Shown here: piece by piece, positions 3,101 to 61,077 of the stretch
Layout of the letters: every line of letters begins with the position of its first letter
Position numbering within the stretch: the first letter of the stretch is position 1
Translations under genes and position numbers: made by a program
Notes under the pieces: model-generated
Seen by the model: the letters and a program-made list of their open reading frames with translations, nothing else
Database searches by the model: none
Told to the model about the DNA's origin: nothing
From: Acidobacteriota bacterium
GTDB taxonomy: Bacteria > Acidobacteriota > UBA6911 > JACOSC01
NCBI GenBank assembly: GCA_016179055.1
Contig: JACOSC010000071.1
Coordinates: 947 to 64,946, forward strand
Direction of reading: 5' to 3'
Length of the DNA: 64,000 nucleotides

Positions 3101-6100
3101 CGGCCACACGAATTGGGTGGCGTCGGTCGCCTGGTCGCCGGACGGCAGCCTGATCGCATCGGGCGCCGAGGACTCGACCCTCCGAATTTGGGATGCGCAA
3201 ACGGGACAGCTTCTGCGCACGATTCCGCATACGGACTGGGTGTTGACGCTGGCCTGGTCGCCCGACGGGACTATGCTGGCGTTCGGCTCCCCGGATCGGA
3301 CCGTCCGTCTATGGGAAGCATCCAGTGGACAAGTGATAGAAATTCCCCGGGATCACACCGCCACCATAATGTCCGTGGCCTGGTCGCCCGATGGCAAGTG
3401 GATTGCCTCGGGTTCTCAGGATAGGACCATCAAGATCTGGGATGTAGCGGGTAGGCGACTCGAAAGAACGCTCACTGGGCACCGTTATCAGGTGACAGCC
3501 GTAACATGGTCACCGAACTCGCAGATGATCGCTTCCGGCTCATATGACGGCACCGGCATCGTCAACCTCTGGAACGTGTCAACGGGTCGGGTTATTCTAA
3601 CGATGACTGGCCATACCGACTATGCTCTGTCCGTGACCTGGTCACCCGATGGCAGTACGATTGCGTCTGCCTCCTATCAAGAGGTCATAATCTGGGATGC
3701 GCTGCAGGGAGACAGACTGATAACGTTTACCGGCGGAGATTCGGTGTCTTCGGTGGCGTGGTCGCCGGATGCCGGCAGGATCGCGGCGGGTTCCCGAAAT
3801 AACACCATACGGATCTGGGACGCTCAAAGCGCGCAACCGATGGGAACGCCCCTAACGGGGCATAAGTCTGGGGTGCTGTCGGTGGCATGGTCGCCCGACG
3901 GGACGATGATTGCGTCCGGTTCCAGGGACGCAACCGTCAAGATTTGGAACGTAGAATTCGGCCTGCTGATAAGAATCTTTACGGAACCCACGGCTCCGGT
4001 GAGCGCCGTGGCCTGGTCGCCGGACTCCACTAGAGTCGTTGCCGGCTGTGATGATACCTTCATCCGAATCTGGAATGTGCGGACCGGCCGCTTGATAGCA
4101 AGGCTTGGGGGGCCGCCTGTGGGGCACACCTCGCACGTGCTGTCGGTGGCGTGGTCGCGCGACGGTAGATACATTGTCTCCGGGTCCCGAGACAGCACGA
4201 TCATAATCTGGAAGGAAGACGGCGGATTCGAAAGAAGGCTCAACGGGCACACAGGCGCGGTGTATTCTGTGGCGTGGTCGCCGGACTCCCGTTTGATCGC
4301 TTCGGGCGGGCAGGACCGAACCGTTAAGATCTGGGATGCGCAAAGCGGCGTCCTGCTCCGAACGCTCACCGGGCACGCCGATGAGGTGCTGTCGGTGACG
4401 TGGTCGCCCGATGGTCGCATGATTGCGTCGAGTTCGGGCAATCGAGACCGGACCGTAAAAATCTGGGATGCGCAAAACGGTCAAGTTCTAAAAACTCTCA
4501 CCGGGCATCTCGATTCCGTATACTCCGTGGCCTGGTCGCCCGACGCTAGCGCAATTGCTTCAAGTTCGGGGGATGGCGCGGTGAGGATTTGGGGCGCTCG
4601 TCCATCCAAGATTGGGTTATATCCACGATCTCTAACGTACACGGGCGTGTTGGGGGAACCCGATCCGCTTAGCCAGACACTGGAGATCGCAAACACGGGC
4701 GGCGGGATATTAAACTGGACGGCCACCGCCACTCCAGGCTGGTTATCGGTTAATCCTAGAAACGGTACACTGCTCAGCGATGCCTCAGGCACGATAGCGG
4801 TATCCGTAAGCATGAATGGTCTGCCGGAGGGAAGCCATACCGGAGAAATACGCATCGATGCGCCGGGTGCGGTGAACACGCCGCAAACGATCCCGGTGGC
4901 GCTGACTGTGATCCGGAGCCCTTTAGAAAACTTTGGGTCGTTGAGCATTCTGGGATTCGGATTTGGCTCCGTAATGACCTTGAGCCAGGTGGCCTACAGC
5001 CCGAACGGTACCCGCATAGCGGTGGCCGGCACTGCAGGCGTCGTGATCTGGAATACGGAGCAAGAAGCGGTGGAAAATGTTCTGGTGGGACATACCAGTG
5101 GCGTGCGATCCGTGGCCTTGTCGCCGGATGGCGGCAGGGTGGCTTCGGGATCCGCCGATAGAACCATCAAGATCTGGAATGCGCAAACGGGCGCTTTGAT
5201 ACGAACGCTGCAGGGGCATACCGGCACAGTATTGTCTTTAGCTTGGTCGCCTGATGATCGTTTGATCGCCTCCGGCTCCGCGGATTCGACCATTAAAATA
5301 TGGGATGCGCAAACCGGACAGTTCCTAAGAACTATTGCGCACACGGACCCGGTGTGGTCTGTGGCGTGGTCGCCTGACAGCCGCTGGATCGCGTCGGGCT
5401 CCGATGATAGAACCGTCCGCATTTGGGAAGCGGGGACAGGTGTCTTGATTCGGACGCTGAGCGGGCATACGGCACCGGTGCAGACTGTCGCCTGGTCGCC
5501 CGATGGAAGCATGATCGCTTCCGGTGCCGGGGGATTAGATAGAACCATCAAGATCTGGAATGCGGAAACGTGGGGCCTGATGCACACATTGACGGGGCAC
5601 GGTCACTGGGTGGAATCGGTGGCGTGGTCGCCCGATTCGGGTAGGATTGCCTCCGGCTCGCAGGACACTACGCTCAGAATCTGGGATGCATCAACGGGCG
5701 AGCAGCTCCAAATGGTGATTGCCCACCCGTCACATACACTGTCCGTGACGTGGTCGCCGGACGGCGGTACGATCGCTTCCAGCTCTTATCAAGAAGTCAA
5801 GATCTGGGACGCGTCGAGTGGCATCTTGATACGAACGCTTACCGGAAATTCTATATCTTCCGTGACGTGGTCGCCCGACGCTACTTTGATTGCTTCGGGC
5901 TCTCAGGATAAGACCGTCAAAGTCTGGGATGTGTTCAGCGCGCAGGTTGTCAGAACGCTGAGCGGGCACACGGCGCCGGTGCTGGCAGTGGCGTGGTCGC
6001 CGAACGGTCGTATGATTGCTTCCGGTTCCGGGGGATTGGATAGAACCGTCAAAATCTGGGATGCGCAAACCGGCGCTGAGCTCCGAACGCTGGCGGGGCA

Positions 6101-6701
6101 CGGCCATTGGGTAGAGTCCGTGGCCTGGTCGCCGGATTCGAGCAGGATTACGTCCGGCTCGGATGATACCGAAATCAGGATCTGGGATGCGCAAAGTGGG
6201 GCGCTGATCCGAAGGCTAACCGGACACACGTCGCATGTATTGTCCGTGGCGTGGTCGCCCGACGGCAGCCTGATCGCTTCCGCTTCCAGAGATGGCACCA
6301 TTAGAATATGGGACGCGTCACGCGGCACGCAGCTCCTCATGCTGACGGGACACATGAGTGCCGTGCTTTCTGTAACATGGTCGCCGGACTCCCGTCTGAT
6401 CGCTTCGGGCGCGGAGGATCGGACCGTCAAAATCTGGGACGCGCAAGCCGGCCGCTCGATCAGAACCCTGAGAGGGCACACGGACAGCGTGTTATCCGTG
6501 GCGTGGTCGCCCGACGCCTTCATGATCGCATCGAGCTCGGCGGACAAGACCGTCAAAATCTGGGACGCGCAAACCGGGCTGGCGATAAGACATCTTACCG
6601 GACACATTGATGCAATAAACTCCGTAGCCTGGTCGCCGGATGCCGGCGCGTTAGCCTCTGGTTCGGGCGACGGGTCCGTCAGACTTTGGGGTTATCGTTA
6701 A
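144..6701 (+). CDS. Giant multidomain repeat protein: alpha/beta-hydrolase remnant, 4x LGFP, 3x BACON/Ig-like, InlB-B-like module, then 2x [Ig-like + 14 WD40 blades]
   Basis: Uninterrupted 2185-aa ORF. Motifs read from the translation: FIVGHSYGG (GxSxG nucleophile elbow) only about 65 aa after the first possible start; LGFP-type repeats ([29 protein letters not shown]); three 86-aa tandem units starting at 1476, 1734 and 1992 ([31 protein letters not shown]); and 28 WSPDG/IWD-type WD40 blades. The frame is open back to a TAG at 12-14. The first start codon is GTG 144 (ATG at 288). No signal peptide is visible. Confidence 0.85.
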
Positions 6702-10921: not shown

Positions 10922-12022
10922 ATGACCCAACCACTGAAGGACCTGCAAAGTATTTTGTTAAAAGCGGCGGAAAGCGCAGCCGATCCTGTACGGCTCAAGT
11001 TCGCCGCTCAGGGAAACTTTCTGGTGGCCCTTTTCTCAACCATGCTGATTTTTTTCGCCACGCAGATGAGCACCGAGCAGGCGCGCAATACCTTGTTCCT
11101 GCTGGGATTGGCCATAACCGGCATGATGACGGGAATCCTCATCCTGGGCATGGCCTATATAACGGCCGAAGCCAACGCCGGTCGGCCGCCGCGGACGAAA
11201 ACGGAGGTTCTGGTTTACAGCCTGTCGAACTTTTCCGGCGCAGTGGGGGCTCCGGCGTTGTTTATGGGCGCCATGGTCTTGGCCCTGTTCCTGGAGGCCT
11301 TGCTTTTCAGCATTGGGAAAATCGAAAACTTCGGCGAGATTTTTGTGGCCCTCTTGTTTATGCCCTTCCTTCTGATCAACGTCGGCCTGGGGGCCTGCGT
11401 CCTGGCGGGGCTTTGGCTGGGGGCCGCGGCCGTGGTGGGTCAAGGCGCCGGCGGATGGGAAACGTTCAAGAGCGTGGCGCGGCTGTTGCGCGCGCACGCC
11501 CTTCGGATTATTCCATTTTTCCTGTTCCTCTTCCTATTAACCGCGCTATTTGCCTCGCTATACTGGTTCGCCATCGCGCTCTCCTTCTCGATCACACTTT
11601 GGACCGCGCAAACGGCCGTTCCGGGCATGCGACTGGCGCTGGTGACGGGACTGCCGCAAATGATCCTTGGCTCCATAGGACCCTTTGGCGGCATGATGAC
11701 GGGTTGGATGGGCGGCTCGAGCCTTTCCATGCAGTTGGCGAGCTTGATCTTTCTATCTTTGTTTTTGCTGGTGGCGGCCGGGGCCGCGGCATGCCCATTC
11801 GTTTTTCTGTCCCAGGCGGCTTACATGATTTCTGAGAGTCACCGAGATGCGATCCAGCCGATAGTGAGGGCGCCGTACGCGGCGGCGGCGGCCGCTTCGG
11901 TGGGGACCGACCGGTTTTACCAGGCCAATATGCCGGCGGCTCCCAAGTGTCCAAAATGTTCCGCCGAATTGGATCCGGCCAGTGTGTTCTGCGGAAGCTG
12001 TGGGGCGCGGCTTGGTCAGTGA
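10922..12022 (+). CDS. Polytopic membrane protein with C-terminal zinc ribbon
   Basis: AAGGAGG lies before ATG 10922. There are about 8 hydrophobic segments. The C-terminus reads CPKCSAELDPASVFCGSCGARL (CxxC..CxxC). Confidence 0.75.
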   Translation: MTQPLKDLQSILLKAAESAADPVRLKFAAQGNFLVALFSTMLIFFATQMSTEQARNTLFLLGLAITGMMTGILILGMAYITAEANAGRPPRTKTEVLVYSLSNFSGAVGAPALFMGAMVLALFLEALLFSIGKIENFGEIFVALLFMPFLLINVGLGACVLAGLWLGAAAVVGQGAGGWETFKSVARLLRAHALRIIPFFLFLFLLTALFASLYWFAIALSFSITLWTAQTAVPGMRLALVTGLPQMILGSIGPFGGMMTGWMGGSSLSMQLASLIFLSLFLLVAAGAAACPFVFLSQAAYMISESHRDAIQPIVRAPYAAAAAASVGTDRFYQANMPAAPKCPKCSAELDPASVFCGSCGARLGQ

Positions 12023-12564: not shown

Positions 12565-12867
12565 TTGAACACAGAGCTCGCCGAGACCGGAGCCTACGCT
12601 CGATCTGAAATCTCCACGTTGCCGGTTGGCAATGAATCGATTATTGCGCTCGTCTCCGTCCTTCTCCTCGCCACTGTGATTTTTTTCGTGATTAAGCGCC
12701 TCAGAAGAAGTCCAGCCGAGGGCTTAAGGCCGGTTACGGTAGCTCAGAATCCGGACTTACCTTTGTCCCCCCACCAGCCTGCGGCAGAAATTGTCTATTG
12801 CGGTGACTGCGGAGGGCAGAACCGGTCTGCATCCAAATACTGCATTCGATGTGGCACGGCTCTCTGA
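12565..12867 (+). CDS. Small single-pass membrane protein with C-terminal zinc ribbon
   Basis: TM segment IIALVSVLLLATVIFFVI followed by YCGDCGGQNRSASKYCIRCGTAL. Only a TTG start is available and the frame is open from 12523, so the start is uncertain. Confidence 0.45.
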   Translation: MNTELAETGAYARSEISTLPVGNESIIALVSVLLLATVIFFVIKRLRRSPAEGLRPVTVAQNPDLPLSPHQPAAEIVYCGDCGGQNRSASKYCIRCGTAL

Positions 12868-12896
12868 GCAGACCGCCAGCGAAGAGGCGAAAGTTT

Positions 12897-14192
12897 ATGC
12901 AATGTTTAAAGTGTGGCACTGAAGCTAAAGCCGGGAAGAAATTCTGTCCCCAATGTGGAGCCCATTTGGATCAGCCCAAAGAATTCACCGGATCCAGGGA
13001 AGCCATCCCTACGGCGGATGCGCCGCCGGCTGGAGATAGCCTCGTCTGTTCCGGATGCGGCGCGCGCATCCCGGCGGGAAGGAAGTTTTGCCGCGCGTGT
13101 GGAACGCCCGTGACGGCAACGGCGCCGCCGCCTTCCGGTCTGAAAATGGAATCGCCCGTCGCTCCGCCGCCCAAGCCGCTCCCGTCGGAGTTTCGAGAAG
13201 GGGCGGGCCCGGGTGCCGGAGCCGGTCCGCCAGAAGTCGTTCCGGATAAGAAGACCTGCGCCGCTTGCGGCGCTTCCGTGGCGGCGGGAAAGAAATTCTG
13301 CCCCTCCTGCGGGTGCCCGTTCGCGGCCGGCGCACCCACGGCCCCCGGATTATCAACTCTAGGCGCTCCGCCGTCCGAGGTCGCTGGAGCGGTCCCTCCG
13401 ACACCGGCGCGCCCGGCCGCCCCAGGGCACCAGGAAACGCCGCCGCCATCGGCCCGCCCCGGCCCGACGGCGGGCATACGGACGGCGGGCCCCCGGCCGA
13501 AGGCCCGTTTCCGCCCGCCCTTTATCGTTGCGGCCGTCCTTGCGGTCACGGTATTGGCGGGAGGGATAACATATTATGTAATGCGCTGGCGGGGCGTCGC
13601 GGAAAGGCCGCCCGCCTCCGTATCTAAAATCGAACCGCCTCCCGCGCCGGTGGGCGGGCAGAGCCCGGATAGCGTGGCGCCGCCCGAGCCGAAAGCGGAA
13701 CAGAAAGCAGAAACAGCGCCGCCGCAAGAAAAAGCCGAGCCGGAGAAGCCCCACCCCGCGGAGCCCTCGAAGCCTGCCGAAGCAAAACGCGAGGCTGAAG
13801 TGAAACGCGAGCCAGCCCTCCGCGCGCAGCGCGAACAAGAAGCCCAGCGCCAGCGGCAGACCGAGGCGCAGGAGCGCGCCCTTGCCGAGCTTAAGGCCAA
13901 AAATGAAGAGCAAGCGAGGCAGCTTGAAGAAGAGCGGCGACGGCGGGCGGAGCTGGAGGCAAAGCAACAGGATGATGAGCGGCGACGGCAAGAGGAAGCG
14001 GCGCTCGCCGCGGCGGCCAAGCCGGAACCGGCGCCGCGCCCGGCCCAGGCGTATACCGGCCCGTCGTCCGGGACCCTTGTTTGGGAAGGTATCGTCCGCG
14101 GCGAGAGTCGCATCAGGAAGAACGTGCCTGGCACTCTTGCTTCGACGGCTTTTATTTTATCGGGCCATGTTATTGGACCCTTCATTGTATAG
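12897..14192 (+). CDS. Triple zinc-ribbon single-pass membrane protein with Pro-rich and E/R/K/Q coiled-coil regions
   Basis: GAAGAGG lies before ATG 12897. Three ribbons: CLKCGTEAKAGKKFCPQCG, CSGCGARIPAGRKFCRACG, CAACGASVAAGKKFCPSCG. TM segment FIVAAVLAVTVLAGGITYYV. There is a long charged coiled-coil-like stretch. Confidence 0.75.
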   Translation: MQCLKCGTEAKAGKKFCPQCGAHLDQPKEFTGSREAIPTADAPPAGDSLVCSGCGARIPAGRKFCRACGTPVTATAPPPSGLKMESPVAPPPKPLPSEFREGAGPGAGAGPPEVVPDKKTCAACGASVAAGKKFCPSCGCPFAAGAPTAPGLSTLGAPPSEVAGAVPPTPARPAAPGHQETPPPSARPGPTAGIRTAGPRPKARFRPPFIVAAVLAVTVLAGGITYYVMRWRGVAERPPASVSKIEPPPAPVGGQSPDSVAPPEPKAEQKAETAPPQEKAEPEKPHPAEPSKPAEAKREAEVKREPALRAQREQEAQRQRQTEAQERALAELKAKNEEQARQLEEERRRRAELEAKQQDDERRRQEEAALAAAAKPEPAPRPAQAYTGPSSGTLVWEGIVRGESRIRKNVPGTLASTAFILSGHVIGPFIV

Positions 14193-14358: not shown

Positions 14359-15324
14359 TTACGGGCTTACTACCTCGAAATGATAGTCGCCCACAGGTTC
14401 CAGCCGCCGATCGGCCCTAGCTCCATTCAGCGTCAGGATATAATAGCCCCTACGGAAGAGGCGGGAGGGTAGCCGCAGGACAACGGCTGGGCCGGGCTCG
14501 GCGACGCGGGTGGAACGCCAATTCCGGCTCCAGATCACGACTTTTTCCACGGATCGAAGTTCTACACGATAGCTTTGGTACGCTTCGTCGTCGGCAAGCT
14601 CCAGTTGAAGTTCAATCTGATGTGCGTCAGGTAAAATAGACAACTTTGGGATAGCGCCTCTATCTGAGCTGGGATCTCTGCGAAGGTTAATGGTGGGTGA
14701 AAGCGCGAACGAAAGGATGAGGGGTTGGGGGGACGGCGTCTTCCCTCGCTGCTCCAACTGGACGAGTCGGTCCTGCCCGCGCCGGAGTTGCTCGGCCAAT
14801 TCGTCGCTGCGCGCGCGTTGCTGCTCGAATTTTTGTTGCCGCTCTTGTTCCTGCCGCTGCTGCGACTGCTGCTCCGTCTGAAGACGCTCAACCTGGGTAG
14901 TCAGCTTCTGGTTTTTCACCATCAGCCACGAGCCGCCGGCCACGACCACCAGCACGGCAGCGGCCGCCAGAGACCAGCCTATCGCCGGTCGCCGCGCCCT
15001 CCACGCGCCGGGTGCATGGACAGTGGGAGCGCCCGCCGCTGATTTCTCGTTAAGCACTTTCAGCACGACTTTGGCGGATTCAAGCTGCCGGCGCCGATGC
15101 GGTACACTCAGAAAGATCTTCTCAAATTTCTCGCGCTCGGTCGGCGAAAGCTCGTCCCTCACATATTGGTCGATGAGTTCCGTCTCCATGGCGAGGAATC
15201 GATCAAACCATTCCTCATCGAGCATAAGCCGATCGTCCAATGACGCTTTCTCCACATCGGACAGGTCCCCCAGCAAGTATCGGACGATCTGTTTTTCAAT
15301 CTCCGCGTCTTGTCGCATGCTCAA
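14359..15324 (-). CDS. Putative membrane anti-sigma factor (cytoplasmic N-domain, TM, coiled coil, extracytoplasmic C-domain)
   Basis: Lies directly downstream of the sigma-like gene. N-terminus IVRYLLGDLSDVEKASLDDRLMLDEEWFDRFLAMETELID. TM segment WSLAAAAVLVVVAGGSWLMV. Q/E/R-rich coiled coil. Confidence 0.6.
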   Translation of the reverse strand: MSMRQDAEIEKQIVRYLLGDLSDVEKASLDDRLMLDEEWFDRFLAMETELIDQYVRDELSPTEREKFEKIFLSVPHRRRQLESAKVVLKVLNEKSAAGAPTVHAPGAWRARRPAIGWSLAAAAVLVVVAGGSWLMVKNQKLTTQVERLQTEQQSQQRQEQERQQKFEQQRARSDELAEQLRRGQDRLVQLEQRGKTPSPQPLILSFALSPTINLRRDPSSDRGAIPKLSILPDAHQIELQLELADDEAYQSYRVELRSVEKVVIWSRNWRSTRVAEPGPAVVLRLPSRLFRRGYYILTLNGARADRRLEPVGDYHFEVVSP

Positions 15325-15384
15325 ATCGCTGCTCTCCGCAATATAGTGTGGAAAACCTCCAAATATTTCATCAAGAATGGCGTT

Positions 15385-15981
15385 TTATTTGGCGTATCCC
15401 TCTCTCTCCAGACACTTCGTGACGCATTCTTCCAGGTTCACTCGGATCCGATGCACTCGAAGCGTTAAGTTACAGAGCGTTGTCTTCAAACGCGCAGCCA
15501 TTATTTTTCTCGCTTCGGCTTGCGTGCGTCCCTGGCCTTGATAATACTCTATAACCAGCGCGCGGCTTTCCGGGCGAAGTTCCCACAGGCAATGCTCCAT
15601 ACACGCGATCCGGCGCTCCCGTTCGGTGTGGTCTTCCGCTGGCGGGTCCGGGAACTGGGACTCGTCACCGATCAGCGGTTGTTCTTTACTCTCCCGTGCC
15701 ACGTCCAGCCAAACTAAATAAGCCACTCGGCGGAAAAAAGCAGGGATGTTATTAATCTTCTCCCCTTGGATTATTTTTTGGGCGCCCCGATCAATGGCCT
15801 TATCGGCGATACTTTCCGGCCACTGGCAGCTCCAGCGCCGGAGGTTTCTTATTAAACCCTGCCGAAGTACTTCATAGCTCTCCGCGGCGCGCGCCGGGTC
15901 CGCATCCAGCGCCTGTAGCAATGCGTCAAACGCCTCCTGGGTCAGAGTATAGTCTTTCTTTCGAGGAGGAGATTTGTCCAT
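15385..15981 (-). CDS. ECF-like sigma-70 family factor
   Basis: 198 aa. Region-2-like FFRRVAYLVWLDVARE and region-4-like RALVIEYYQGQGRTQAEARKIMAARLKTTLCNLTLRVHRIRVNL. Starts 12 nt after the CHAT ORF stop. Confidence 0.6.
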   Translation of the reverse strand: MDKSPPRKKDYTLTQEAFDALLQALDADPARAAESYEVLRQGLIRNLRRWSCQWPESIADKAIDRGAQKIIQGEKINNIPAFFRRVAYLVWLDVARESKEQPLIGDESQFPDPPAEDHTERERRIACMEHCLWELRPESRALVIEYYQGQGRTQAEARKIMAARLKTTLCNLTLRVHRIRVNLEECVTKCLEREGYAK

Positions 15982-15993
15982 ATGTTGCCCGCC

Positions 15994-16980
15994 TTACTTC
16001 CATTCACCCTGCAGCGTAAATGCCGCCCAATAATAGGGCGCTTCCCAACCCTTCGTCTTCCACATGGCGATCTGTGCCTGGCGCAACGCCGCCGCGGGGC
16101 TCAGCCGTTCCCGGCCCAGCAAACCCCGGTAGAAGTGGGCCATCAGCTCGGCTGTAGCGCGATCCTCGACCTGCCACAAGCTGGCCATCACGCGGCTGGC
16201 GCCGGCGTACATAAACCCCCGCGTCAGGCCCACCAGCCCTTCGCCTTTAATCTCTTTTCCCAAGGCCGTTTGACATCCGCTCAGCACCACCAGTTCCGCC
16301 GGCAGGTCCAGATTGTATATTTTGTGCAGTTGCAGGAAGCCGTTTTGCGGCGCGCCCTGCTCGTCCACCAGCGATAACACAAGTCCCGACAACTCCGGAT
16401 GCTCGCTGTTGAGGAACCCATGCGTAGCGAAATGCACAATACGAAATTGGCGAAGCGCGACGCTCGTTGCAGTTGCCAGGCTCGCCGAAAAATCCACGGC
16501 TTTCATCCCATCTCCGGGAGAGGTCATAGCTAGGATGGCCTCTGCCTCCCGGCGCGTGAAGGGCAATCGCCGGAAACGCCAACCCGTTTCCGCGAGGCTC
16601 GCTTCCCTGGCCGAGCGCTTCCCGTCGAAGATTGGAGAATACTCCCGGACCTCGGGCTTCCGGGTCCCTGCCGCGGGCCGGACCGCCGGTCGAATTCGTG
16701 TGTCCTCCTTATCGTAAACCGGATCGGCCAGCACAGCCACCTTTCTGGTCGCCGGTGGGCGGCCGGCCCGCTCCCGCCGCAGCACCGCCAGCGTAGACGC
16801 CGACGGCAAACTCACGATTTCATGCCCCACCATGAGCGGGACCCCTGGCTCTGTCTCCGGGCCGGCGCCGGCCGTGGGCGGCCGCGGCAGCGCGGCAAAC
16901 GGTACATATTGCAGAGCGCCATCGCTCACGATCAGCAAGCGTTTCTTTCCCAACTGAGCCGCCACCGGTCCGAGCAGCAT
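15994..16980 (-). CDS. CHAT (caspase-like) protease domain, the 3' part of a frameshifted TPR-CHAT gene
   Basis: KRLLIVSDGALQYVPFAALP, catalytic-type His (VHFATHGF) and Cys (LVVLSGCQTALG), and the tail YYWAAFTLQGEW. The same frame stays open upstream ([16 protein letters not shown]..) into the end of the TPR ORF. Confidence 0.8.
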   Translation of the reverse strand: MLLGPVAAQLGKKRLLIVSDGALQYVPFAALPRPPTAGAGPETEPGVPLMVGHEIVSLPSASTLAVLRRERAGRPPATRKVAVLADPVYDKEDTRIRPAVRPAAGTRKPEVREYSPIFDGKRSAREASLAETGWRFRRLPFTRREAEAILAMTSPGDGMKAVDFSASLATATSVALRQFRIVHFATHGFLNSEHPELSGLVLSLVDEQGAPQNGFLQLHKIYNLDLPAELVVLSGCQTALGKEIKGEGLVGLTRGFMYAGASRVMASLWQVEDRATAELMAHFYRGLLGRERLSPAAALRQAQIAMWKTKGWEAPYYWAAFTLQGEWK

Positions 16981-17003
16981 CCGGCTCAGATCGGCGGCGG
17001 CTT

Positions 17004-19409
17004 CTAGATACTGCGCGCGTCGGCGGCCGCCGCGCGCGCCCGTCCTTGCTGGGTGGTTTCTCCCTTCACTGGCCGGTTGCGCGCCGTCAACCGCTCATAG
17101 ACCCGTCGGACGGCCGCCTCCACCACAGAGCGTTTCGACAGATCAAAGCCGGTGATGCTCGTTGGCGCTACGACCCAGAGAAAGCTGCGTTCATCGCCCA
17201 GGGCGTACTCCAGTATCAGGGTGTCGGAGTCGAGCACGTGCTGTTGAATCTCCGATAAGCTTAAGGGCTGAGGCTGTGTCAGCGCGGCGTAGCGCGGGCT
17301 GGAAGCGCGAATCTGCGCTTGGGCCTCCTTGTACTCTTCTACCAGTGCGACCAGTTTCTTTTTCACAGTCTGTGCTTGTTCCTCGCTGGGCTTGCCGCTA
17401 AGCATCAGCGTCTGACGTTCTACCTGAACGTTCAGTAGCGCCTGCAACCGGCGTTCACGTTCAAGCAACGCGGGATCGACGCCCTGACGAATGTCCACGC
17501 GGGCCTCTCCTAGCATTTCGATCAAAGTACGCGCGCGCGCGCGCTCACTAGTCTGGAACGCGGCCGCCAGATAGCCCTCCCCGGGATGGCGCGCATGCAG
17601 GCGCATCAGCAGATCCGTGTAGAACTCGTAATATTGCCGCACCGTGGCAAAGTAAGACGCGCGCAGTTCAGGGCTGACGATTTTGGCGCGTAAAGACTCA
17701 ATGACGTTGAGCCCCGACTCAATGCACGACCGCGCCTCCCCGATCTGACCGCGCTCGCGTTCCAGGTGCGCGATCGCGTAAAGCGTCGGCACCTCAATCG
17801 TTCGATCTTCGACTGCGCGACTAAGCTGAAGCGCCTGGCCATAGTAATCGAGCGCCCTTGGATTCTCTCTTAACAAGGCATAGACCGCGCCCATATTCCG
17901 GAGAGTGATGGCTTCTCCTCGACGATCCACGATCGCTCGCAGGCGAGCGAGCGCCTGATGATAGCAGTCCAGCGCCTTTTGCTGGTCCCCGATCTCGCTG
18001 TAAACTCTACCAATGTTGTTGAGCGCACGGGCTTCTCCGCGACGATTGTCGGCATCTCGATACAATTCAATCGATCGGGTGTAGTGATCGATCGCCCTCT
18101 GTCTCTCGCCTAATGCCTGAAAGGCAGCGCCCATATTGTTAAGCACGGAAGCTTCTCCACCGCGGTTGCCCGCCGAGCGAAACAATTGAAGCGCTTCGTT
18201 AAAGTAGTCGATCGCCCTCTCTTTCTCATCCAAGTCGTGATAAGTTTTGCCGAGGTTATTCAGCGTGGAAGCTTCCCCGAAGCGGTCCTCCAGGGCTCGC
18301 ATTAGGGGCAATGCCTGGCTGAAGTATTTCTGCGCCGCTTGAATATCACTCGACGACTGGCAGTATGATGCCAGATTCAGCAACGCCACCGCTTCTCCGC
18401 GCCGGTATCCCACGGCTCGCATAAGCGCAAGCGCCTGGTCCATATGCTGAAACGCTTTCTGATTCTCGCCCAGGTCGTAGTGGACTTTGCCAAGGTTTAG
18501 GATTGTGGCGGCTTCTCCCCGTTTGTCTCCCACAGAGCGTCGGAGGGTGATCGCTTGAGTATAGTAGTCGATCGCCTTCTGTTTTGTATCCCGCGCTGAA
18601 TACACGGCGGCAATGTTATGAGTGGTCTCCGCTTCGCCATAGAGGTCTCGTGCGGCCCTCCGAAGCGTGAGCGCCTTTTCATAATACTCCAGGGCTTTCT
18701 CATTCTGGTTCAAACGCTCGTAAATAGTACCCAGACTATTAAGGGTTTGAGATTCCCCGAAGGTATCCCCCGTGGTTCGCCAGTGTATAAACGCTTCTTG
18801 GTACTTCGCAATCGCTCGTTGTAGGGTGGCGGCCGTAGCGGTCGTATGCAGTTGCTTCGCCTCTGTTGAAACTCGCTCGGCAGCCATCCAGTGCTGATCC
18901 TGCGGTATACTGCCGCGTCGCTCTTCAATTCTGATTTGGTACCGCACGGCGAGCGCCATTTTTTCAACCACGCTCACTTCCAGCCGATAAACCCCGGACG
19001 TCGGCGCTATCAGTGAGACCGGTTCCGGTCCGTACCAGCGACTGTCGAATTTAGCGTGGAGTTTATTGTTCGGCTCCCAGAGTGTTACTGATAAATCAAC
19101 GTTTCCTTGATCGATCACGACGTGCAGGTACTGACCCGCGGCTAGGGTAACAAGATAGGAATGCTTTTCGCCTCCGGTCAACACCTGTTCCATGGACGCA
19201 CCAGGTTCCAGCAGAGACGTTTCTGGGCCAGACTGAGTGGCATGATTTGGAGGCGCAAGACTCTGGACAAGCCGTGCGGACGCCATGCGGTGCGGCCAGC
19301 CTGCCAGTTCAAACAGGAACAAAAAACTCAAGAAGAGACTTAACGTGCATTGAGCAACCCGCCGGGTTGGATCACACGCCATCATGCACCGTTTGATCCG
19401 CTGAGACAT
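17004..19409 (-). CDS. Signal/anchor sequence, PPC-like beta-sandwich and about 10 TPR units; the 5' part of the frameshifted TPR-CHAT gene
   Basis: GGGGGAGG lies before ATG 19409 (the ORF track begins at 19475). Hydrophobic N-terminus [17 protein letters not shown]. Repeated A..YY..AL.L.R..GDR.GEA..LNN.G units. Ends in TAG at 17004-17006 inside a GC-dinucleotide run. Confidence 0.8.
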
Positions 19410-19947
19410 GCTAACACCTCCCCCCTGGACTGATCCGAAACTTTTGTGCTTATTTCGTCCCATCCAACGCCACATGCCCTAACTTCACCAACCCTGCCCG
19501 CTGACATAACCGCAGCGCTTGAACGAAATTGTTGGCTCATGCCTTCATACTATCTATTCCCATCCTTCTGTCAAGAACATTTTAGACATTCCACAAAAGA
19601 TTTCTCATTTCCTCCGACCCATCCAAATCCATCCCCGACACGTTCCTTGGCGGCGGGCTGGTAGTTGGAATGCCGGGAATGGCACTGGATCGGCTGGTTT
19701 AACAGGCTTTTTTTCCACCATGGATGCCTGATGGCGCTGAGCAAATTTTTAAGAGGATCGATGCGGCTGGGCGCCTATCTGATCTCAACTTTACCGAAAC
19801 TTCCTGACCTGAGCTGGATTGATATAAGGTGAGCGAGACAAAAAAATTCAGAGAGGCTCAACTGATAATAGAGCGCTATACAGACACGGCGATTAGTGTG
19901 CCTGCAGCGACCTGGCTGGACTGCGGCGACATAAAGGAGTGCTGGCC

Positions 19948-21151: not shown

Positions 21152-22108
21152 ATGGCCTTAGCGGGAAATTTGGAAACAGCATCGCTGGAAAATATACTCC
21201 AGATGTTGAACATGAACAAATCCACCGGCGAGCTGGTGCTTATTCGCGGGTCAAAGCGGATCGGAATCTTCTTTATCGACGGCGCCATTGTTTATTCACA
21301 ATCCACCATCCCCGCCCATGGCATGGAGACTATTCTAATTCGGCGCAGACGGCTCAGCCAAGCCGATTTACAAATGTACATGGCCCTACAGAAGCACTCT
21401 AACAAAGACCTGCTGGCCGTGCTGCTTGAGAATAACGTGATGACGCGACGCGAATGCGTGGTCTGTCTCGATTTCCAAACCGATCAAATCATTTTTGAGG
21501 CGTTAGGATGGGAAGAGGGCACGTTTTATTTTGAAGAGGGCCGTCATCCTGATAAAACCGTTATCCTCATATCTCGAAATCCCATCGACCTTGTGCTTGA
21601 AGGCTTACGCTGTATCGATGAGTGGCGCGAGATTCGAAAGCAATTACCGGCGCGCGATAGTATACTGGAGATCGATTTCAAGGAGAACAGAGATTCCCAA
21701 GCGCTCTCCTTGACTCAGGCGGAATTTAATTTGGCACTTCTTATGAATGGTTCTCGAACACTCAATGACCTGTGCGCGCTCAGTTCGGCTTCCGAGTTTG
21801 ACACCTGCAAGGCCGTGCTGCAATTAATGAGCACAGGGATGGTGAGAGTCAAACGGACCGGAGATGGTCAGCCGGTCAGGCCGTCTACGACTTCTGGGCC
21901 GCATGCGTCGTCTGAGCGAACCTTTGAGGAGACTATCTCGCTGGCGCCGGCGTTGTTGACCACCACCACGTACCGTAGGGCGGCCGTGAAGGTTAAAGGA
22001 TTGGCCAAAGGGAGAGGGCTGCCCTTCACCCATGCATCGCCGGATCCCAGAGTGAGTATTGGTCGGATTAAAGGTCTAGTTGCCACTGTGTTTAAGCCGC
22101 GCAAATAG
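21152..22108 (+). CDS. DUF4388 (PATAN-like) domain protein
   Basis: The N-terminus GNLETASLENILQMLNMNKSTGELVLIRGSKRIGIFFIDGAIVYS is the typical DUF4388 signature. The C-terminal half is low complexity. Confidence 0.7.
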   Translation: MALAGNLETASLENILQMLNMNKSTGELVLIRGSKRIGIFFIDGAIVYSQSTIPAHGMETILIRRRRLSQADLQMYMALQKHSNKDLLAVLLENNVMTRRECVVCLDFQTDQIIFEALGWEEGTFYFEEGRHPDKTVILISRNPIDLVLEGLRCIDEWREIRKQLPARDSILEIDFKENRDSQALSLTQAEFNLALLMNGSRTLNDLCALSSASEFDTCKAVLQLMSTGMVRVKRTGDGQPVRPSTTSGPHASSERTFEETISLAPALLTTTTYRRAAVKVKGLAKGRGLPFTHASPDPRVSIGRIKGLVATVFKPRK

Positions 22109-23353: not shown

Positions 23354-25897
23354 TTACAGTGTGCTCATTTCTACGCGCAGCACCGAATTGCCGACGCGGG
23401 CCCCATAGAGAACCTTGCGAGAGTCCGGCGAAAACACCGGCCGCCAGACCTCATCCAAGGCCGGGCCTCTCTTATTGCCGACAACGATAAACTGCTTGCC
23501 CGCATCCTTGGCGATGTAGGCCACCTGCTGGCTGTCGGAGCTAAAAGTTAGACCGGAAATTTGCTCGAAGACTGGGCCTTTCTGGCCTTCAAGCAGGACG
23601 AACGCTCGGCCGTCCTGGTGGGCCACATAAGCGGAGGCCTGATTGTTTGGACTAAAGGTAAAGTCTGAAATGGCTTCGAATTCAGGTCCATAGTTGTCAC
23701 CGCTTACCAAGAAGGCCTTGCCGCTACGGTGCGCGATGTAGCTTATGGTCTTACCATCGGGCGAGTATCTTAGCCCCGAAATACTATCGTATGCGGCGCC
23801 GCTCGGATGATTATCGGTGACAATAAATTCATGGTCGTCCTTCCTGGCCACATAGGCTATATTCTTGCTGTCCGGGCTAAAAACGGGATTTGAAACTTTG
23901 TCATAAGCCTCTCCGCGTTCTTCGCCAACGACGAGCACTTCGTGGTTGCCTTCACGTGCCGCGTAGGCCAGGCGCAGACTATCGGGGCTAAATACCAAAT
24001 CGCCGATGGCGGCGAACTCTTGCCCCTTTTCTTTCCCAAAGACAACAAAAGCTTTTGCCCCTCTCTTGGCGGCATAAGCTATCTTACGGCTATCCGGGCT
24101 AAAAACCATATGGCCGACCCAGTCGTACTCCGATTCCCTCCTATTGTTGCTGACGACAAAAAATTTCTTAGCCTGACGTGCAATATATGCGAGGATCGCC
24201 CCGTTAGGGCTAAAGCTGAGGGTGTCGACGCCGTCAAACAGCGGCCCGCTCTTTTGATTAAGGACAGTCAGTTCGCGTCCGTCCTGCCCGGCCTTGTAAG
24301 CGACTTTGTTCTTCTCCGCGCTAAAGATCACCTGATCTACGGAATCAAATGCAGGACCGCGTTGTCCACCAATCGCGACGTGCCAGAACTGACCCAGCCG
24401 CACTTTGTAAGTCACCTTCGATGTGTCTGGGCTAATATGAATGTCTTGCACGGCGTCGGCAGCATCATGCTCGACGGTCGTGAGCGTGCTTTCACGCACC
24501 CTGAATTCCAATCCGGCGGTCTGTGGCGGGATAATGCCAGTAGTTTGGATCGACCCCGAGGGATCCAATCCGCCGGCCTTCGCGGCTTTGGCCATTTCTT
24601 CCTGGTTTAATTTATAGACAAAGAGGGTAAGAAGTACCCCCATCAGGACAGTTATGCTAACGCTCCACATCCGAACAAATGAGCCATTCTCCACCGTGGC
24701 CCGCTCTTCGCGTTTCTTGATTTTTGAGGCAAAGTGGTCCGCCTCAATTCGTAGAATTTCCGCTCGCTCCTTTTTCTCTTGTTCACTGCTGTACGTTTCT
24801 TCGAGGAATTTTAACCGGCTGTTTTCATGCTCGACCCTCTTCAACTCTTTATATAAAGAGCGTTCCGCGGGATTAAATTCTTCAAGCTGATTCTGCCCCT
24901 CTATCCACTTTCTATACTCATCCAAGAGAGAAGGTCCATCCTGACTCTCTCCTCGCCGGCGGTTGAATGCTTTTTCCTCCGAGTCCTCGTGGCTTTCTTC
25001 CACGGACAAGTTGTCGTACGCCGAGAGGGGCTGGGCTCCTTGATGGCCGCTCAGGGCGGCTCCCATTTCGGCGGCCGTATTCCAACGCTGACTCTTGTCT
25101 TTGGCCAGCGCTTTCTGTAGCACCGCGTTGATCGATTCCGCGACGCCGGCTAGTGGGGCAGGCGTCTCGGTCAGAATGGCTTGGCGTAAGTTGCACCCGG
25201 AAAGTGGGGGTTTCCCCGAAAGCAACTGGTAAAGAATGCAGCCAAGGGCGTAAATGTCGCTACGGGGATCGCTTTCTTCTCCGAGAAGCTGCTCAGGGGC
25301 CATGTTGACCAAAAGCCGGCTGCTGTCGCTGCTCGTTAGGCGAGTCGTCAGGGCACGTGCCACCTTGCCGACGCCAAAGCCTCCCAGCTTGATAGTCCCG
25401 CCCCCGGTCAGTAGAATATTTTTCAGTTTTAGATCTAGATGTGGGATCTTGCGGCTATGCGCGTACTCAAGGCCTCGTATGATTTGTTCTGCAAAATTTA
25501 AAGCGGTCTCAATCGGGATTTTGCCGGCCGGTAATGTGGTCATGAGATCCGCCAGCGATGAGGCGTCCGCATACTCCATGGTCAGGAATTTGCGCTCGCC
25601 GTCGTCACGGACACCAAACAAACGAATAATGTTCTTATGATTAAGAATCGTTGCCTTTTCAATATGGCGAAGCAATTCTCGAACGATCGCGCGGTCTTGA
25701 GCGACAAGGCTATTAAAGACCTTGATAGCGATCTCCGTACTGGTTTCCGTGTCGTAAGCTTGGTATACCGTGCCAAAGAGGCCGGAGCCAATAGTCCTGC
25801 GGACATGATAACGGCTCATGAGTACGGTGCTCGGCGCCAATTCCTTTTCAGCTACTCGTAGGATATCCAATAAGTCAATAGGTTGATCTTCCGCCAT
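23354..25897 (-). CDS. Membrane Ser/Thr kinase-like protein (DFG replaced by GFG) with about 10 PD40-like propeller repeats
   Basis: GSGLFGTV, AIKV, HLDLKLKN and MAPE are present, but KLGGFGVGK stands where DFG is expected. Coiled coil. TM segment ITVLMGVLLTLFVY. Ten units of roughly 36 aa of the type VFSPDS..IAYAA. Confidence 0.85.
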   Translation of the reverse strand: MAEDQPIDLLDILRVAEKELAPSTVLMSRYHVRRTIGSGLFGTVYQAYDTETSTEIAIKVFNSLVAQDRAIVRELLRHIEKATILNHKNIIRLFGVRDDGERKFLTMEYADASSLADLMTTLPAGKIPIETALNFAEQIIRGLEYAHSRKIPHLDLKLKNILLTGGGTIKLGGFGVGKVARALTTRLTSSDSSRLLVNMAPEQLLGEESDPRSDIYALGCILYQLLSGKPPLSGCNLRQAILTETPAPLAGVAESINAVLQKALAKDKSQRWNTAAEMGAALSGHQGAQPLSAYDNLSVEESHEDSEEKAFNRRRGESQDGPSLLDEYRKWIEGQNQLEEFNPAERSLYKELKRVEHENSRLKFLEETYSSEQEKKERAEILRIEADHFASKIKKREERATVENGSFVRMWSVSITVLMGVLLTLFVYKLNQEEMAKAAKAGGLDPSGSIQTTGIIPPQTAGLEFRVRESTLTTVEHDAADAVQDIHISPDTSKVTYKVRLGQFWHVAIGGQRGPAFDSVDQVIFSAEKNKVAYKAGQDGRELTVLNQKSGPLFDGVDTLSFSPNGAILAYIARQAKKFFVVSNNRRESEYDWVGHMVFSPDSRKIAYAAKRGAKAFVVFGKEKGQEFAAIGDLVFSPDSLRLAYAAREGNHEVLVVGEERGEAYDKVSNPVFSPDSKNIAYVARKDDHEFIVTDNHPSGAAYDSISGLRYSPDGKTISYIAHRSGKAFLVSGDNYGPEFEAISDFTFSPNNQASAYVAHQDGRAFVLLEGQKGPVFEQISGLTFSSDSQQVAYIAKDAGKQFIVVGNKRGPALDEVWRPVFSPDSRKVLYGARVGNSVLRVEMSTL

Positions 25898-28520: not shown

Positions 28521-30005
28521 TTAATTTTTTACTCCGTCGAAACGATAGGGCAGCCACTCCGACACGCTCTTCTGGCCATCGCGGTCCCTGGCCGATCCGT
28601 CCCACACCGCGACTGCGAGCTTCCCAGCGGTGCGCAGGTCGGCGTCGCCGCCGTAGCGAGTCTCGATGTCCCGCACGAAGACGACCCTCCAGCGGCCGTC
28701 GCGCCAAGCGCCGGTGCCGCTGACGTTCTGTTCCGCCGCCGGCTGCGGCGTCAGGGAACCGGGGCCAATCGCGTTCAAGTCCTCGATCGGCGAGCTGCGT
28801 TTGGCGGCGGCCATCGCGTTGCCCACCGCACCGGCGCGGACAGCGGTCGCTTTGCCGGCGATCTGGCTCGACAGCTCGAGCTGCCAGTCAGCTTTCCAGT
28901 GCCAGATGTTGACCGGCCCCGAGTGCATCCCCATACCGTAAAAGCTCCGCTCGGCCGCGCCCTCGCCCTGTTGGAGCGGAAACTCCAGCGCCACGCCGTC
29001 GCGGAAGTCCTCGATGCGCAGCGGCCGGGCATCCTGGGACGAATCGCGCCATTCGACGCGCACTGCCAGCCGCTTGCCGTCGCTCACGGCACGAACCTCC
29101 GCGGCATCCGGCGCCGCGTCGCGCGCGTACAGAGCCCGCAGCAGAACGGTCGCCGGCGTCGCGCGGTCGAAAATCGTGTCATCGGGGGTTACGCTGGGCG
29201 GCAGTTGCTCGCGAGCTATCACCAGCTCGCGGCTCGGCGCCGGCGGCGGCGCGCCGGACTTGCCGAGCTCCTGGACGAAGCAAGCCAGCGCCCACAGATC
29301 CTCGTCCGGGTAGGAGCCCTGGTAGGCGGGCATCGGCGTACCGCTCAGGCCGGTCGAGAACGTCCGGTAAATGTCCTCGAGCTTGCTGCCGCCCTTCATG
29401 CGGCCGCCGTGGGTGAAATCGTACGCGCGGATCGGATCGCCACGGTCGTCCTTGAGGGTCGTCGACGATGGACCATCGCCCTTGCCGCCCTCGCCGTGGC
29501 ACTTGGCGCAGCCCGCCTTGACGTACACCTGTGCCCCCCTGTCGGTGAGGGAGGCGCAGCTCGGGGCTTTCCCGATGGCGATCGGCGCCGCCGGCGTGCG
29601 CTCCTTCCACTCATTGGAGAATGTCTTGATGTGGGCAATCACCGCGCGCCGCTCGGCGTCGGTCAGTTGAGCCCACGACGGCATCGACGTGCCCGGGACG
29701 CCGTTATCGAGCGTGCGGAGCAGGTCGGCGTCGGTCGGCAACTCGCCCGACGGTGTCGAGCGGAACTTGAACACCGCGCGCGTGAAGTCGCGTGGCCGCG
29801 GCGATAACAAATATGCGATGCTGCCCTTGCCGTTGCCGCGGTCGCCGTGGCAAACGGCGCATTGCGCTTGGTATATCGCCTTGCCGGCGGCGACGGTAGC
29901 AGCAGTCTCACTGCTCTGTCGCGCCGCGCGCCGCGCCACCATGACCGCCACACCCGCGGCGACAAGCACCAGCACCGTGACGGTAAGCGCGATCCTGCGT
30001 CTCAT
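28521..30005 (-). CDS. Gamma subunit: membrane-anchored di-haem cytochrome c fused to an EB_dh-like haem b domain
   Basis: Start ATG 30005 overlaps the delta stop (ATGA). Anchor IALTVTVLVLVAAGVAVMV. Two CxxCH motifs (CAVCHG, CAKCHG). C-terminal domain VRVEWRDSS..DGVALEFPL..YGMGMHSGPVNIWHWKADW..VAVWDGSARDRDGQKSVSEW, as in the gamma subunits of type II DMSO-reductase enzymes. Confidence 0.8.
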   Translation of the reverse strand: MRRRIALTVTVLVLVAAGVAVMVARRAARQSSETAATVAAGKAIYQAQCAVCHGDRGNGKGSIAYLLSPRPRDFTRAVFKFRSTPSGELPTDADLLRTLDNGVPGTSMPSWAQLTDAERRAVIAHIKTFSNEWKERTPAAPIAIGKAPSCASLTDRGAQVYVKAGCAKCHGEGGKGDGPSSTTLKDDRGDPIRAYDFTHGGRMKGGSKLEDIYRTFSTGLSGTPMPAYQGSYPDEDLWALACFVQELGKSGAPPPAPSRELVIAREQLPPSVTPDDTIFDRATPATVLLRALYARDAAPDAAEVRAVSDGKRLAVRVEWRDSSQDARPLRIEDFRDGVALEFPLQQGEGAAERSFYGMGMHSGPVNIWHWKADWQLELSSQIAGKATAVRAGAVGNAMAAAKRSSPIEDLNAIGPGSLTPQPAAEQNVSGTGAWRDGRWRVVFVRDIETRYGGDADLRTAGKLAVAVWDGSARDRDGQKSVSEWLPYRFDGVKN

Positions 30006-30658
30006 GGCACCAAACCTCCGCTGTTCAGAATGGCGAGCCGCTCGGTTCCTTCGGTCACCGCCTTCTGCAAGTAGTCGCGATGGTTGAGGAGCAAAACCTC
30101 CAGGCATGCGCCGGCCCTGGTGTAGAACAGCTCCCGCGTCGCGCCAGGCAGGCGTCGATTGACGAGCGGGAACCAGGCCCCAAGGTGTCGCTCAAGGAAA
30201 TCCCGCTGGGCAAGCCGGAGAGCCTGCAGCTTCGCCTCCGTTCCGTCAGCCTTGGTTTCCTCCTCAGCCAGGTAAGCCATGAGCTCCAACTCCACACACA
30301 GGTGATCGGGATACTCTCGCGGTTCCTCGCACAGGTGCACGCCGAGGTGATCGTAAAACCTCATCAGGTCCATAAAGAGCGCCTGCCGCGTTCCGTCTTG
30401 CACGATCAACCCCTCGTGCAGGGGACAAGCCGGGGCCACATCGAACGCATTGATGTACTCCGGCTCAACTTCTTCCCACGGTAGGGAGAAGCGCAGATCC
30501 TCGTTCAAGGCCACGCAGAACGGCAACCGCGAGAACACTCCCCGGAGCCACGCCTGCGACGCTTCCGAGGCAAGGAGATCGTAGAAATCCTTGCTCGGAT
30601 ACGAAAAGGCCTGAGCGGCGAACATGTACGCTTGTGCGACGGGGTTCACGAGCTCCAT
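30002..30658 (-). CDS. Delta subunit: TorD/NarJ-family maturation chaperone
   Basis: 218 aa with EPEYINAFDVAP..PLHEG and YPDHLCVELELMAYL, typical of redox-enzyme maturation proteins. Sits between beta and gamma. Confidence 0.75.
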   Translation of the reverse strand: MELVNPVAQAYMFAAQAFSYPSKDFYDLLASEASQAWLRGVFSRLPFCVALNEDLRFSLPWEEVEPEYINAFDVAPACPLHEGLIVQDGTRQALFMDLMRFYDHLGVHLCEEPREYPDHLCVELELMAYLAEEETKADGTEAKLQALRLAQRDFLERHLGAWFPLVNRRLPGATRELFYTRAGACLEVLLLNHRDYLQKAVTEGTERLAILNSGGLVP

Positions 30659-31867: not shown

Positions 31868-31870
31868 GGC

Positions 31871-36456: not shown

Positions 36457-36491
36457 TCTTCACCGTCAGTGGGTTCTGGCTCGGCTCGACC

Positions 36492-61026: not shown

Positions 61027-61077
61027 CGTAGTATTGCAGCGGACTTCCGTTTCCCCTCTGAAAATAAACACGGCGAA

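Follow-up and report, generated by a model that had tools for sequence, protein, structure and literature searches.

A conserved cassette of TPR-CHAT protease, divergent ECF-type sigma factor and membrane anti-sigma-like genes in Acidobacteriota, a possible split counterpart of DdvA-DdvS

Canonical anti-sigma proteolysis, exemplified by the RseA/DegS/RseP and RsiW/PrsW/RasP systems, begins with a periplasmic cut by a site-1 protease, continues with a site-2 cut, and ends with the sigma factor being freed. A similar logic may operate in a cassette of three minus-strand genes located in the window, i.e., a stretch of 64,000 nucleotides from an Acidobacteriota bacterium (GenBank assembly GCA_016179055.1, contig JACOSC010000071.1, positions 947 to 64,946) that was analyzed here as a whole. 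The genes encode a TPR-CHAT protease (tetratricopeptide repeats, TPR, followed by a caspase-like CHAT domain), a divergent sigma factor of the extracytoplasmic function (ECF) type, and a single-pass anti-sigma-like membrane protein. The site-1 enzyme would in this case be an operon-encoded clan-CD caspase-like cysteine protease with a TPR sensor, not a serine protease or metalloprotease.

TPR-CHAT proteins have already been connected with ECF-type sigma factors in two other systems. DdvA-DdvS from Myxococcus xanthus consists of a transmembrane anti-sigma factor with a periplasmic TPR-CHAT region and of an ECF sigma factor (PDB ID: 8ROT and 8RW5; PMC11506125, PMC6061681). The TPR-CHAT region of DdvA blocks RseP, and its removal results in RseP-dependent degradation; it has been proposed that the CHAT domain clips the linker to the membrane helix, licensing RseP (PMC11506125). 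Craspase comprises Cas7-11, the TPR-CHAT protein Csx29, Csx30, and CASP-sigma (PMC10028731). A third case is the ECF54 group from Actinobacteria, whose conserved context includes CHAT, carboxypeptidase, and subtilase genes and no anti-sigma factor, and for which proteolytic regulation was proposed from synteny (PMC8999054).

The window cassette shares with DdvA-DdvS an ECF-type sigma factor, a single-pass anti-sigma protein, and a TPR-CHAT region with a conserved His/Cys dyad, predicted here to be periplasmic and presumed to act as sensor and site-1 protease. DdvA combines the anti-sigma domain (ASD), the membrane helix, the TPRs, and the CHAT domain in one polypeptide, an architecture that recurs in one related locus (L056, see below) and not in the window, where a gene of its own encodes TPR-CHAT as a protein predicted to be secreted, and a coiled helix and a beta-sandwich belong to the anti-sigma protein itself. 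Unlike DdvA with its CHCC site, the window ASD lacks a Cys/His zinc motif, and it is the sigma factor that carries two CxxxC motifs. No CBASS or CRISPR defense island accompanies the window cassette, in which it also differs from DdvA-DdvS. DdvA-like anti-sigma factors have been reported only from Myxococcota and one Comamonas (PMC11506125), whereas the cassette occurs mainly in Acidobacteriota. Beyond the shared superfamilies, no sequence relationship to DdvA, DdvS, or Csx29 is detectable: the sigma family profile did not retrieve DdvS from the PDB at E<=10, and the window CHAT domain, searched against the PDB for Csx29 or DdvA, found only separase (E 0.5). The likeness to Craspase lies in the release, proposed or shown, of an ECF-type sigma factor by a TPR-CHAT protein that cuts its inhibitor; Craspase, however, is cytoplasmic, RNA-guided, and bound to Cas7-11, with Csx30 being soluble, whereas the window encodes a predicted signal peptide and a membrane anti-sigma protein. 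The ECF54 group likewise links an ECF sigma factor with a CHAT gene but is set apart by its description, as it belongs to another phylum and the cassette has an anti-sigma gene in 54 of 57 loci. An incomplete literature collection contained no paper describing the split cassette.

The proposal of the sequence-only reading that the three genes belong together was borne out by a gene-neighborhood survey. A sigma-based scan, with one genome per species, yielded 57 loci, almost all of them in Acidobacteriota metagenome-assembled genomes (Blastocatellia, Pyrinomonadaceae, and a few Vicinamibacterales and Bryobacteraceae), often with several loci per genome. An anti-sigma homolog directly follows the sigma gene in all but three of them, and 37 (65%) have a TPR-CHAT gene immediately beside these genes, on the same strand. 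The order CHAT-sigma-anti-sigma is found in 32 loci, sigma-anti-sigma-CHAT in four (plus L020, cut by a contig end), and a fused arrangement in one (L056); thus, the window and 36 of the 37 adjacent loci encode TPR-CHAT and anti-sigma separately. Nine further loci, mostly from one orthologous subgroup, have a TPR-CHAT gene within 8 kb that is not adjacent. No TPR-CHAT gene is present in the available sequence of 11 loci, most of which end at contig ends; L037, L038, and L041 alone have ample flanks and no CHAT gene. Usually the CHAT gene comes first and is separated from the sigma gene by a few nucleotides, and contigs from the Joint Genome Institute (JGI) show the same gene order. As sigma identity to the window protein is 32-40% across the related loci and the ~740 kb of flanking sequence contain few additional, non-adjacent CHAT genes, the adjacency in 65% of loci is far beyond chance; the low identity also implies that it is ancient. 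Across dozens of loci, the gene set is a real conserved module.

In the fused locus, L056, a sigma gene of the same family is followed by a single 1215-aa open reading frame (ORF) that comprises an ASD, a membrane helix (residues 129-147), TPRs from residue ~203 onwards, and a CHAT domain (E 7.7e-62) with an intact dyad. Its ASD has the YLLGEL...DLID.Y pattern of the split anti-sigma proteins, and the fusion lacks the beta-sandwich that every split anti-sigma protein carries; its similarity to DdvA is confined to the TPR region (E 4.6e-4). Because it joins an ASD and a membrane helix to TPR-CHAT, DdvA-DdvS, and not Craspase, is the closest known system. The fusion provides the strongest argument that the protease would act on or with the anti-sigma protein and is not a mere passenger. 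The split cassette is best described as DdvA-like, with a non-zinc ASD, an additional beta-sandwich, a cysteine-bearing sigma factor, and a different phylogenetic range.

Four minus-strand ORFs occupy positions 14359-19475 in the ORF listing of the window, and they confirm the three consecutive genes with gaps of 12 and 60 nt described in the sequence-only reading (all cassette coordinates below refer to the minus strand). ORF 1 (17004-19475; 823 aa from the first ATG, 801 aa from ATG 19409) and ORF 2 (15994-16980; 328 aa) are parts of one protease gene; the break lies near 17007-17035, in a GC-rich stretch. The most plausible start is ATG 19409, which is preceded by GGAGGTG as a Shine-Dalgarno sequence. 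The N-terminal signal-peptide-like segment (19275-19409) consists of a basic n-region, an 18-residue hydrophobic core, and 'MASA' before R46, and an equivalent segment followed by AxA/AQA-type motifs is present in most homologs; the call was made with a hydropathy heuristic and the AxA motif, not with SignalP. The next domain (residues ~60-183, 18861-19232), a beta-sandwich located between the signal peptide and the TPRs, scores low against Pfam PPC (E 0.022; 16 bits, which is below the cut-off; profile positions 3-69 of 70) and was recovered by jackhmmer in 22 of 28 adjacent CHAT homologs; the PPC-like label is plausible, not established. The TPR array (17556-18833) has about 9-10 forty-residue units (TPR_12, E 1.9e-68, and other TPR models) with LGN/Pins-type TPR matches in the PDB. 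It is followed by a helical region ahead of the CHAT domain (17007-17555), 37-59% identical in homologs, which ends at a premature TAG (17004-17006) caused by the frameshift. The CHAT domain (PF12770, clan CD, E 2.8e-70) is encoded by ORF 2 (15994-16980), and its catalytic His (HFATHG, codon 16420-16422) and Cys (LSGCQT, codon 16273-16275) are invariant in all 38 sigma-linked CHAT homologs aligned. The protein of roughly 1130 aa with a signal segment, about 10 TPRs, and a CHAT dyad that had been read from the letters thus holds in its domains, with the PPC-like one weak, and measures 1137 aa when the frame is restored.

The frameshift itself fared differently, as it had been treated as something to be repaired and proved reproducible. 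Its site is the GC-rich run GGGCGCGCGCGGCGGCCGCCGACGCGCGCAG (17007-17035): the upstream frame needs a -1 shift to continue, the downstream CHAT ORF sits in the -1 frame, and the change is equivalent to a 2-nt insertion or a 1-nt deletion. Removal of one GC dinucleotide restores a continuous product, 1137 aa long when started at ATG 19409 and 1159 aa when started at the first ATG, whose junction parallels that of the homologs. Two Logan assemblies of different runs, SRR12113389 and SRR12113411, each contributed a contig that encodes the 198-aa protein of the second gene, matches the window at 100% identity (over 6.4 and 5.4 kb, respectively), and has the protease gene divided into 801 + 328 aa in the same way; because the frameshift is identical in independent assemblies, three in total, it is not a one-off assembly error. 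Programmed frameshifting was considered and rejected as unlikely, because a slippery heptamer is absent at the break. The simplest reading is a recent inactivating mutation or slippage in a (GC)n-like run. It parts the N-terminal half predicted to be exported (signal peptide, PPC-like domain, and TPRs) from the CHAT domain, and the CHAT ORF as encoded has neither its own signal peptide nor a clear Shine-Dalgarno sequence. This copy is therefore probably without an exported active protease and probably disabled, and the pathway in this genome is probably locked off or decaying.

The second gene (15385-15981) encodes a protein of 198 aa with sub-threshold matches to the NCBIfam models TIGR02937 (20.5 bits vs. 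a cut-off of 42.9, E 2.8e-4), TIGR02989 (32.2 bits vs. a cut-off of 124.6, E 9e-8), and SigZ. A word-indexed database search found only four relatives, from which a hidden Markov model (HMM) was built. Run against representatives clustered at 50% identity, it detected 5466 proteins at E<=1e-3, of which 1483 reached E<=1e-30; by these profile counts, the family is large. Among 121 family members, 62 match Sigma70_r4_2 and only four match Sigma70_r2. The profile of these 121 sequences matched ECF sigma factors in the PDB at 2.9e-5 to 1e-4 over nearly the full length, among them SigL (2.9e-5) and Rhodobacter RpoE (8.7e-5). An AlphaFold2 (AF2) model with a predicted local distance difference test (pLDDT) score of 90.5 comprises a four-helix sigma2 (15682-15945), a flexible low-confidence linker, and a four-helix sigma4 (15394-15630); the helical blocks span residues 15-100 and 118-196, in a two-domain architecture without sigma1.1 or sigma3. 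The top PDB matches of the model in Foldseek are all ECF sigma factors (SigL, SigH, SigE, AlgU, and RpoE; probability 1.0, ~180 columns). From profile and predicted fold, we conclude that the protein is a divergent ECF-type sigma factor missed by standard HMMs. Surveys of ECF sigma factors probably under-count this family, since the standard Pfam models miss it. Two near-invariant CxxxC motifs, both present in 62 of 64 locus homologs, are located in the first sigma4 helix (C127/C131) and in a C-terminal extension of the last helix (C186/C190; within 15394-15630). The anti-sigma protein of the cassette contains no cysteines, and a site of the redox or Zn(Cys)4 type may instead be carried by the sigma factor. 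Several family members are longer: P0105 has 530 aa, and P0015, P0111, P0121, P0125, and P0126 have 323-350 aa, owing to extra sequence of ~140 aa at the N-terminus or, for one protein, ~290 aa at the C-terminus. They could be fusions or mis-called starts.

The third gene (14359-15324; 321 aa from TTG, 319 aa from ATG 15318) encodes the anti-sigma-like protein, whose homologs are annotated solely as hypothetical proteins. Its N-domain alone (the first 100 residues; helical domain at 15037-15318) matches zf-HC2 (PF13490) with 27.1 bits (E 4.5e-6, gathering cut-off 22.2), and the full-length protein with 23.0 bits. Since the N-domain has no Cys and a single His, so that the HxxxCxxC motif of the zinc-binding anti-sigma (ZAS) subclass is missing, it is a non-zinc ASD at best. 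The AF2 model (pLDDT 80) contains five helices (residues 2-94), a disordered segment, a long helix (116-191), and a beta-sandwich (200-317). The long helix is composed of the membrane span, the one hydrophobic membrane helix found by hydropathy and AF2 (residues ~114-136; 14911-14979), and of a Q/E/R-rich stalk (14746-14910), which is predicted to be periplasmic, as is the beta-sandwich (14362-14727); more basic residues lie on the N-terminal side of the span. Foldseek matches of the beta-sandwich are generic (immunoglobulin, cupredoxin, and CBM-like folds) and dominate the search with the whole model. The single-pass protein with an anti-sigma-like N-domain and an extracytoplasmic coiled and beta-rich part that the sequence-only reading had described thus agrees with the zf-HC2 match and the model. 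The Pfam match, the topology, and the invariant place beside the sigma gene support its assignment as an anti-sigma-like protein. The beta-sandwich was found by jackhmmer in all split anti-sigma proteins (58 ORFs), and because of this universality its co-variation with the PPC-like domain of the protease was uninformative. A second anti-sigma-like match in the window, at 60442-61134, was spurious and corresponds to a cytidylyltransferase.

A conserved gene set, the folds and predicted topology of its products, a dyad kept intact across the family, and the fused variant lead us to infer sigma/anti-sigma binding, a cleavage event, and a signal, which would be linked as follows. The locus would constitute a three-component envelope signaling module, in which the cytoplasmic helical domain of the single-pass anti-sigma protein would hold the divergent ECF-type sigma factor inactive. 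The exported TPR-CHAT protease would sense a signal through its TPR and PPC-like domains and, acting as a site-1 protease, would cut the periplasmic part of the anti-sigma protein in trans; intramembrane proteolysis would follow, and the sigma factor would be released. The proposed logic is the same as that of canonical anti-sigma proteolysis. As the protease is predicted to be exported, it and the anti-sigma C-domain would share the periplasm, and the arrangement feared in the sequence-only reading, a cytoplasmic protease with a periplasmic substrate, is not the predicted one. We consider this trans-cleavage module, a split two-polypeptide version of the DdvA-DdvS design, the most likely mechanism, with a chance that falls just short of even. 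A broader claim, that the family as a whole forms a large and hitherto undescribed envelope signaling system in which a secreted TPR-CHAT protein is the dedicated trans site-1 protease for a beta-sandwich anti-sigma protein and the two CxxxC motifs of sigma4 provide a second redox or metal input, is more speculative, with a chance clearly below even.

Several observations weigh against the trans-cleavage module. The protease gene of the window is split by the frameshift, so no intact sensor and protease are encoded in one exported polypeptide, and export to the periplasm is predicted from hydropathy alone. CHAT-mediated cleavage in DdvA is itself still a hypothesis (PMC11506125). The 198-aa protein has no Pfam match at E<0.01 and thus fails the Sigma70_r2 and Sigma70_r4 HMMs, by which the sequence-only reading had proposed to judge its ECF-like sigma factor; the assignment survives by family profile and AF2 fold but not by these models. 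A profile of the anti-sigma N-domain retrieved no significant anti-sigma structure from the PDB (RslA at E 1.8). An ECF-type promoter, sought upstream of 19409 as had been suggested, was not found: no canonical ECF-type motif precedes the window operon, and the best candidate is sigma-70-like (TTGACA, 16 nt, TAGTAT at 19574-19547, with 10 of 12 consensus matches, ~140 nt upstream of the protease start). Bipartite k-mers and GAAC...CGT counts compared with shuffles gave no shared ECF-type motif upstream of 32-47 related operons either, nor any enrichment of canonical ECF patterns. A reverse survey started from 79 metagenome loci with similarity to the window CHAT domain (52-63% identity), 47 of which have at least 2 kb of downstream sequence. 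The sigma gene is adjacent or close on the same strand in 21 of the 47, in another nearby arrangement in three, and absent in 23; about half of the close CHAT homologs are therefore unlinked to this sigma factor, their neighbors being genes for a methyltransferase, an AlkZ-like glycosylase, a tricorn-like protease, DUF4384 proteins, and tandem CHAT proteins. By these neighborhoods, the sigma family relies on a CHAT partner to a much greater extent than the CHAT family relies on the sigma factor. This fits a CHAT family with several uses, gating of this sigma factor being one of them, and leaves room for the protease as an effector.

According to the latter explanation, the protease is an output: the sigma/anti-sigma pair answers another envelope signal through a site-1 protease encoded elsewhere and switches on the co-transcribed protease, which is exported and has other substrates. 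Target genes are common in ECF operons, the unlinked CHAT homologs with their unrelated neighbors imply that the protease works independently of the pair, and the Peptidase_C11 gene upstream in 13 related loci suggests protease batteries. The ASD-membrane helix-TPR-CHAT fusion of L056 is, however, hard to explain if the protease is merely a target; moreover, the CHAT gene is usually first with short gaps to the sigma gene, the window promoter is sigma-70-like and not ECF-dependent, and in DdvA, the precedent, TPR-CHAT belongs to the input (PMC11506125). We thus consider the output explanation unlikely, though not negligible. Alternatively, the TPR-CHAT protein might be a non-proteolytic co-sensor or a steric guard on the anti-sigma beta-sandwich, with catalysis being irrelevant to release or serving self-processing only. 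RseB, which shields RseA from proteases, offers a parallel, the TPR and PPC-like domains are binding modules, and a beta-sandwich universal in the split anti-sigma proteins and absent from the fusion fits a docking role. Moreover, the TPR-CHAT region of DdvA sterically blocks RseP, with its active site in an inactive geometry (PMC11506125). The invariance of His and Cys in 38 of 38 sigma-linked CHAT domains, the fusion included, nevertheless indicates that catalysis is under selection, which makes a purely steric role rather improbable.

Two further explanations concern the status and the origin of the locus. The cassette in this genome could be a non-functional remnant, with the protease as a recent pseudogene and the sigma and anti-sigma genes silent or being lost; this is compatible with any mechanism at the family level. 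The frameshift shared by three assemblies, the lack of a visible slippery heptamer, and a CHAT ORF without a signal peptide or clear Shine-Dalgarno sequence speak for it. Nonetheless, no other stop codon interrupts the two halves, and neither the sigma gene nor the anti-sigma gene is damaged, so that any inactivation must be very recent; the break in a (GC)n-type run could revert by slippage, and all three assemblies may derive from a single clonal population sampled in one study. On balance, a remnant seems a minor prospect. The idea that the locus is a degenerate or relocated accessory module of a type III-E CRISPR system (Craspase) is effectively refuted. It draws on the conceptual parallel alone, a TPR-CHAT protease with an ECF-type sigma factor (PMC10028731). 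The 64-kb window contains no cas genes (as the sequence-only reading had stated), no Cas7-11 (gRAMP), no Csx30, no CRISPR-like array, and no Rfam match, and PADLOC reported only generic TPR matches and no defense system. A PDB search with the window CHAT domain gave no Csx29 match up to E 1; Csx29 is a cytoplasmic protein, unlike the window protease with its predicted periplasmic location; and the third gene encodes a membrane anti-sigma protein, not Csx30. Of the stand-alone Craspase-like logic suggested earlier, the tie between the protease and the anti-sigma protein stands through the L056 fusion, while the analogy with Craspase is only conceptual.

The trans-cleavage module is of interest because the DdvA study left open whether the CHAT domain makes the first cut that frees the ECF sigma factor. 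Protease and substrate are inseparable in the fused DdvA, whereas a natural split version provides them as two proteins, so that the idea becomes testable in vitro and by genetics. The cassette also widens TPR-CHAT-linked sigma control from a few Myxococcota to many Acidobacteriota and to one or more unrelated lineages with sparse sampling, outside CRISPR and phage defense. If the module acts as proposed, caspase-type proteolytic gating of transcription would be a widespread form of envelope sensing in soil bacteria, independent of CRISPR and phage defense.

Some related loci have additional recurrent features. A gene for Peptidase_C11 (clostripain family, clan CD) is located directly upstream of TPR-CHAT in 13 of the 57 loci (e.g., L007 2680-4248, L011 6295-8193, L016 1512-3362, and L021 3051-4406, with nine others) and is absent from the window; its position hints at a two-protease arrangement. 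ARPP-1 (PF20208) genes are found near the cassette in 13 loci at varying positions (e.g., L014 405-1475, L022 9654-10751, L023 943-1995, and L027 1-1005), and it is unclear whether this reflects a functional link or the shared ancestry of orthologous regions. In the orthologous subgroup of L022, L035, L036, L037, L040, L052, L053, and L062, the sigma gene comes first and is followed by a short anti-sigma gene, with the CHAT gene ~5 kb away. The upstream comparison of related operons showed only coding-sequence and promoter conservation within one orthologous subgroup; the L022-type subgroup shares a promoter-like TTGACA-N17/18-GCTAACTGTCTGCGAG, ~20-170 nt upstream of the sigma ORF.

The flanks of the window cassette encode two zinc-ribbon (DZR) proteins, a DUF4388/PatA_N protein, and a Ser/Thr kinase with PD40 repeats (genes at 10922-12022 (+), 12849-14192 (+), 21152-22108 (+), and 23354-25897 (-)), which are not conserved with the cassette elsewhere. 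A complete type II dimethyl sulfoxide (DMSO) reductase-family operon is located at 28521-34828 (-); it encodes an alpha subunit (TIGR03479, 843 bits), a Fer4_11 beta subunit, a Nitrate_red_del chaperone, and a diheme cytochrome c fused to an EB_dh-like gamma subunit, and resembles the nitrite-oxidoreductase/ethylbenzene-dehydrogenase type. A porin O/P-like gene lies downstream of it, and a sigma-54 response regulator and a histidine kinase are encoded at 35101-38465. The beginning of the window is occupied by a gene for a giant protein of 2185 aa (144-6701 (+)), consisting largely of WD40 beta-propellers with at least 25 repeats; its N-terminal part includes a 258-bp tandem repeat (1497-2167, 2.6 copies). 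Close to the opposite end, the product of an NAD synthase (NadE) gene (61216-62880 (-)) is 72% identical to one metagenome protein and 58-60% identical to named proteins from Brocadiia (Planctomycetota), which, set against the Acidobacteriota relatives of the cassette, may point to a horizontal gene transfer or an unsampled lineage.

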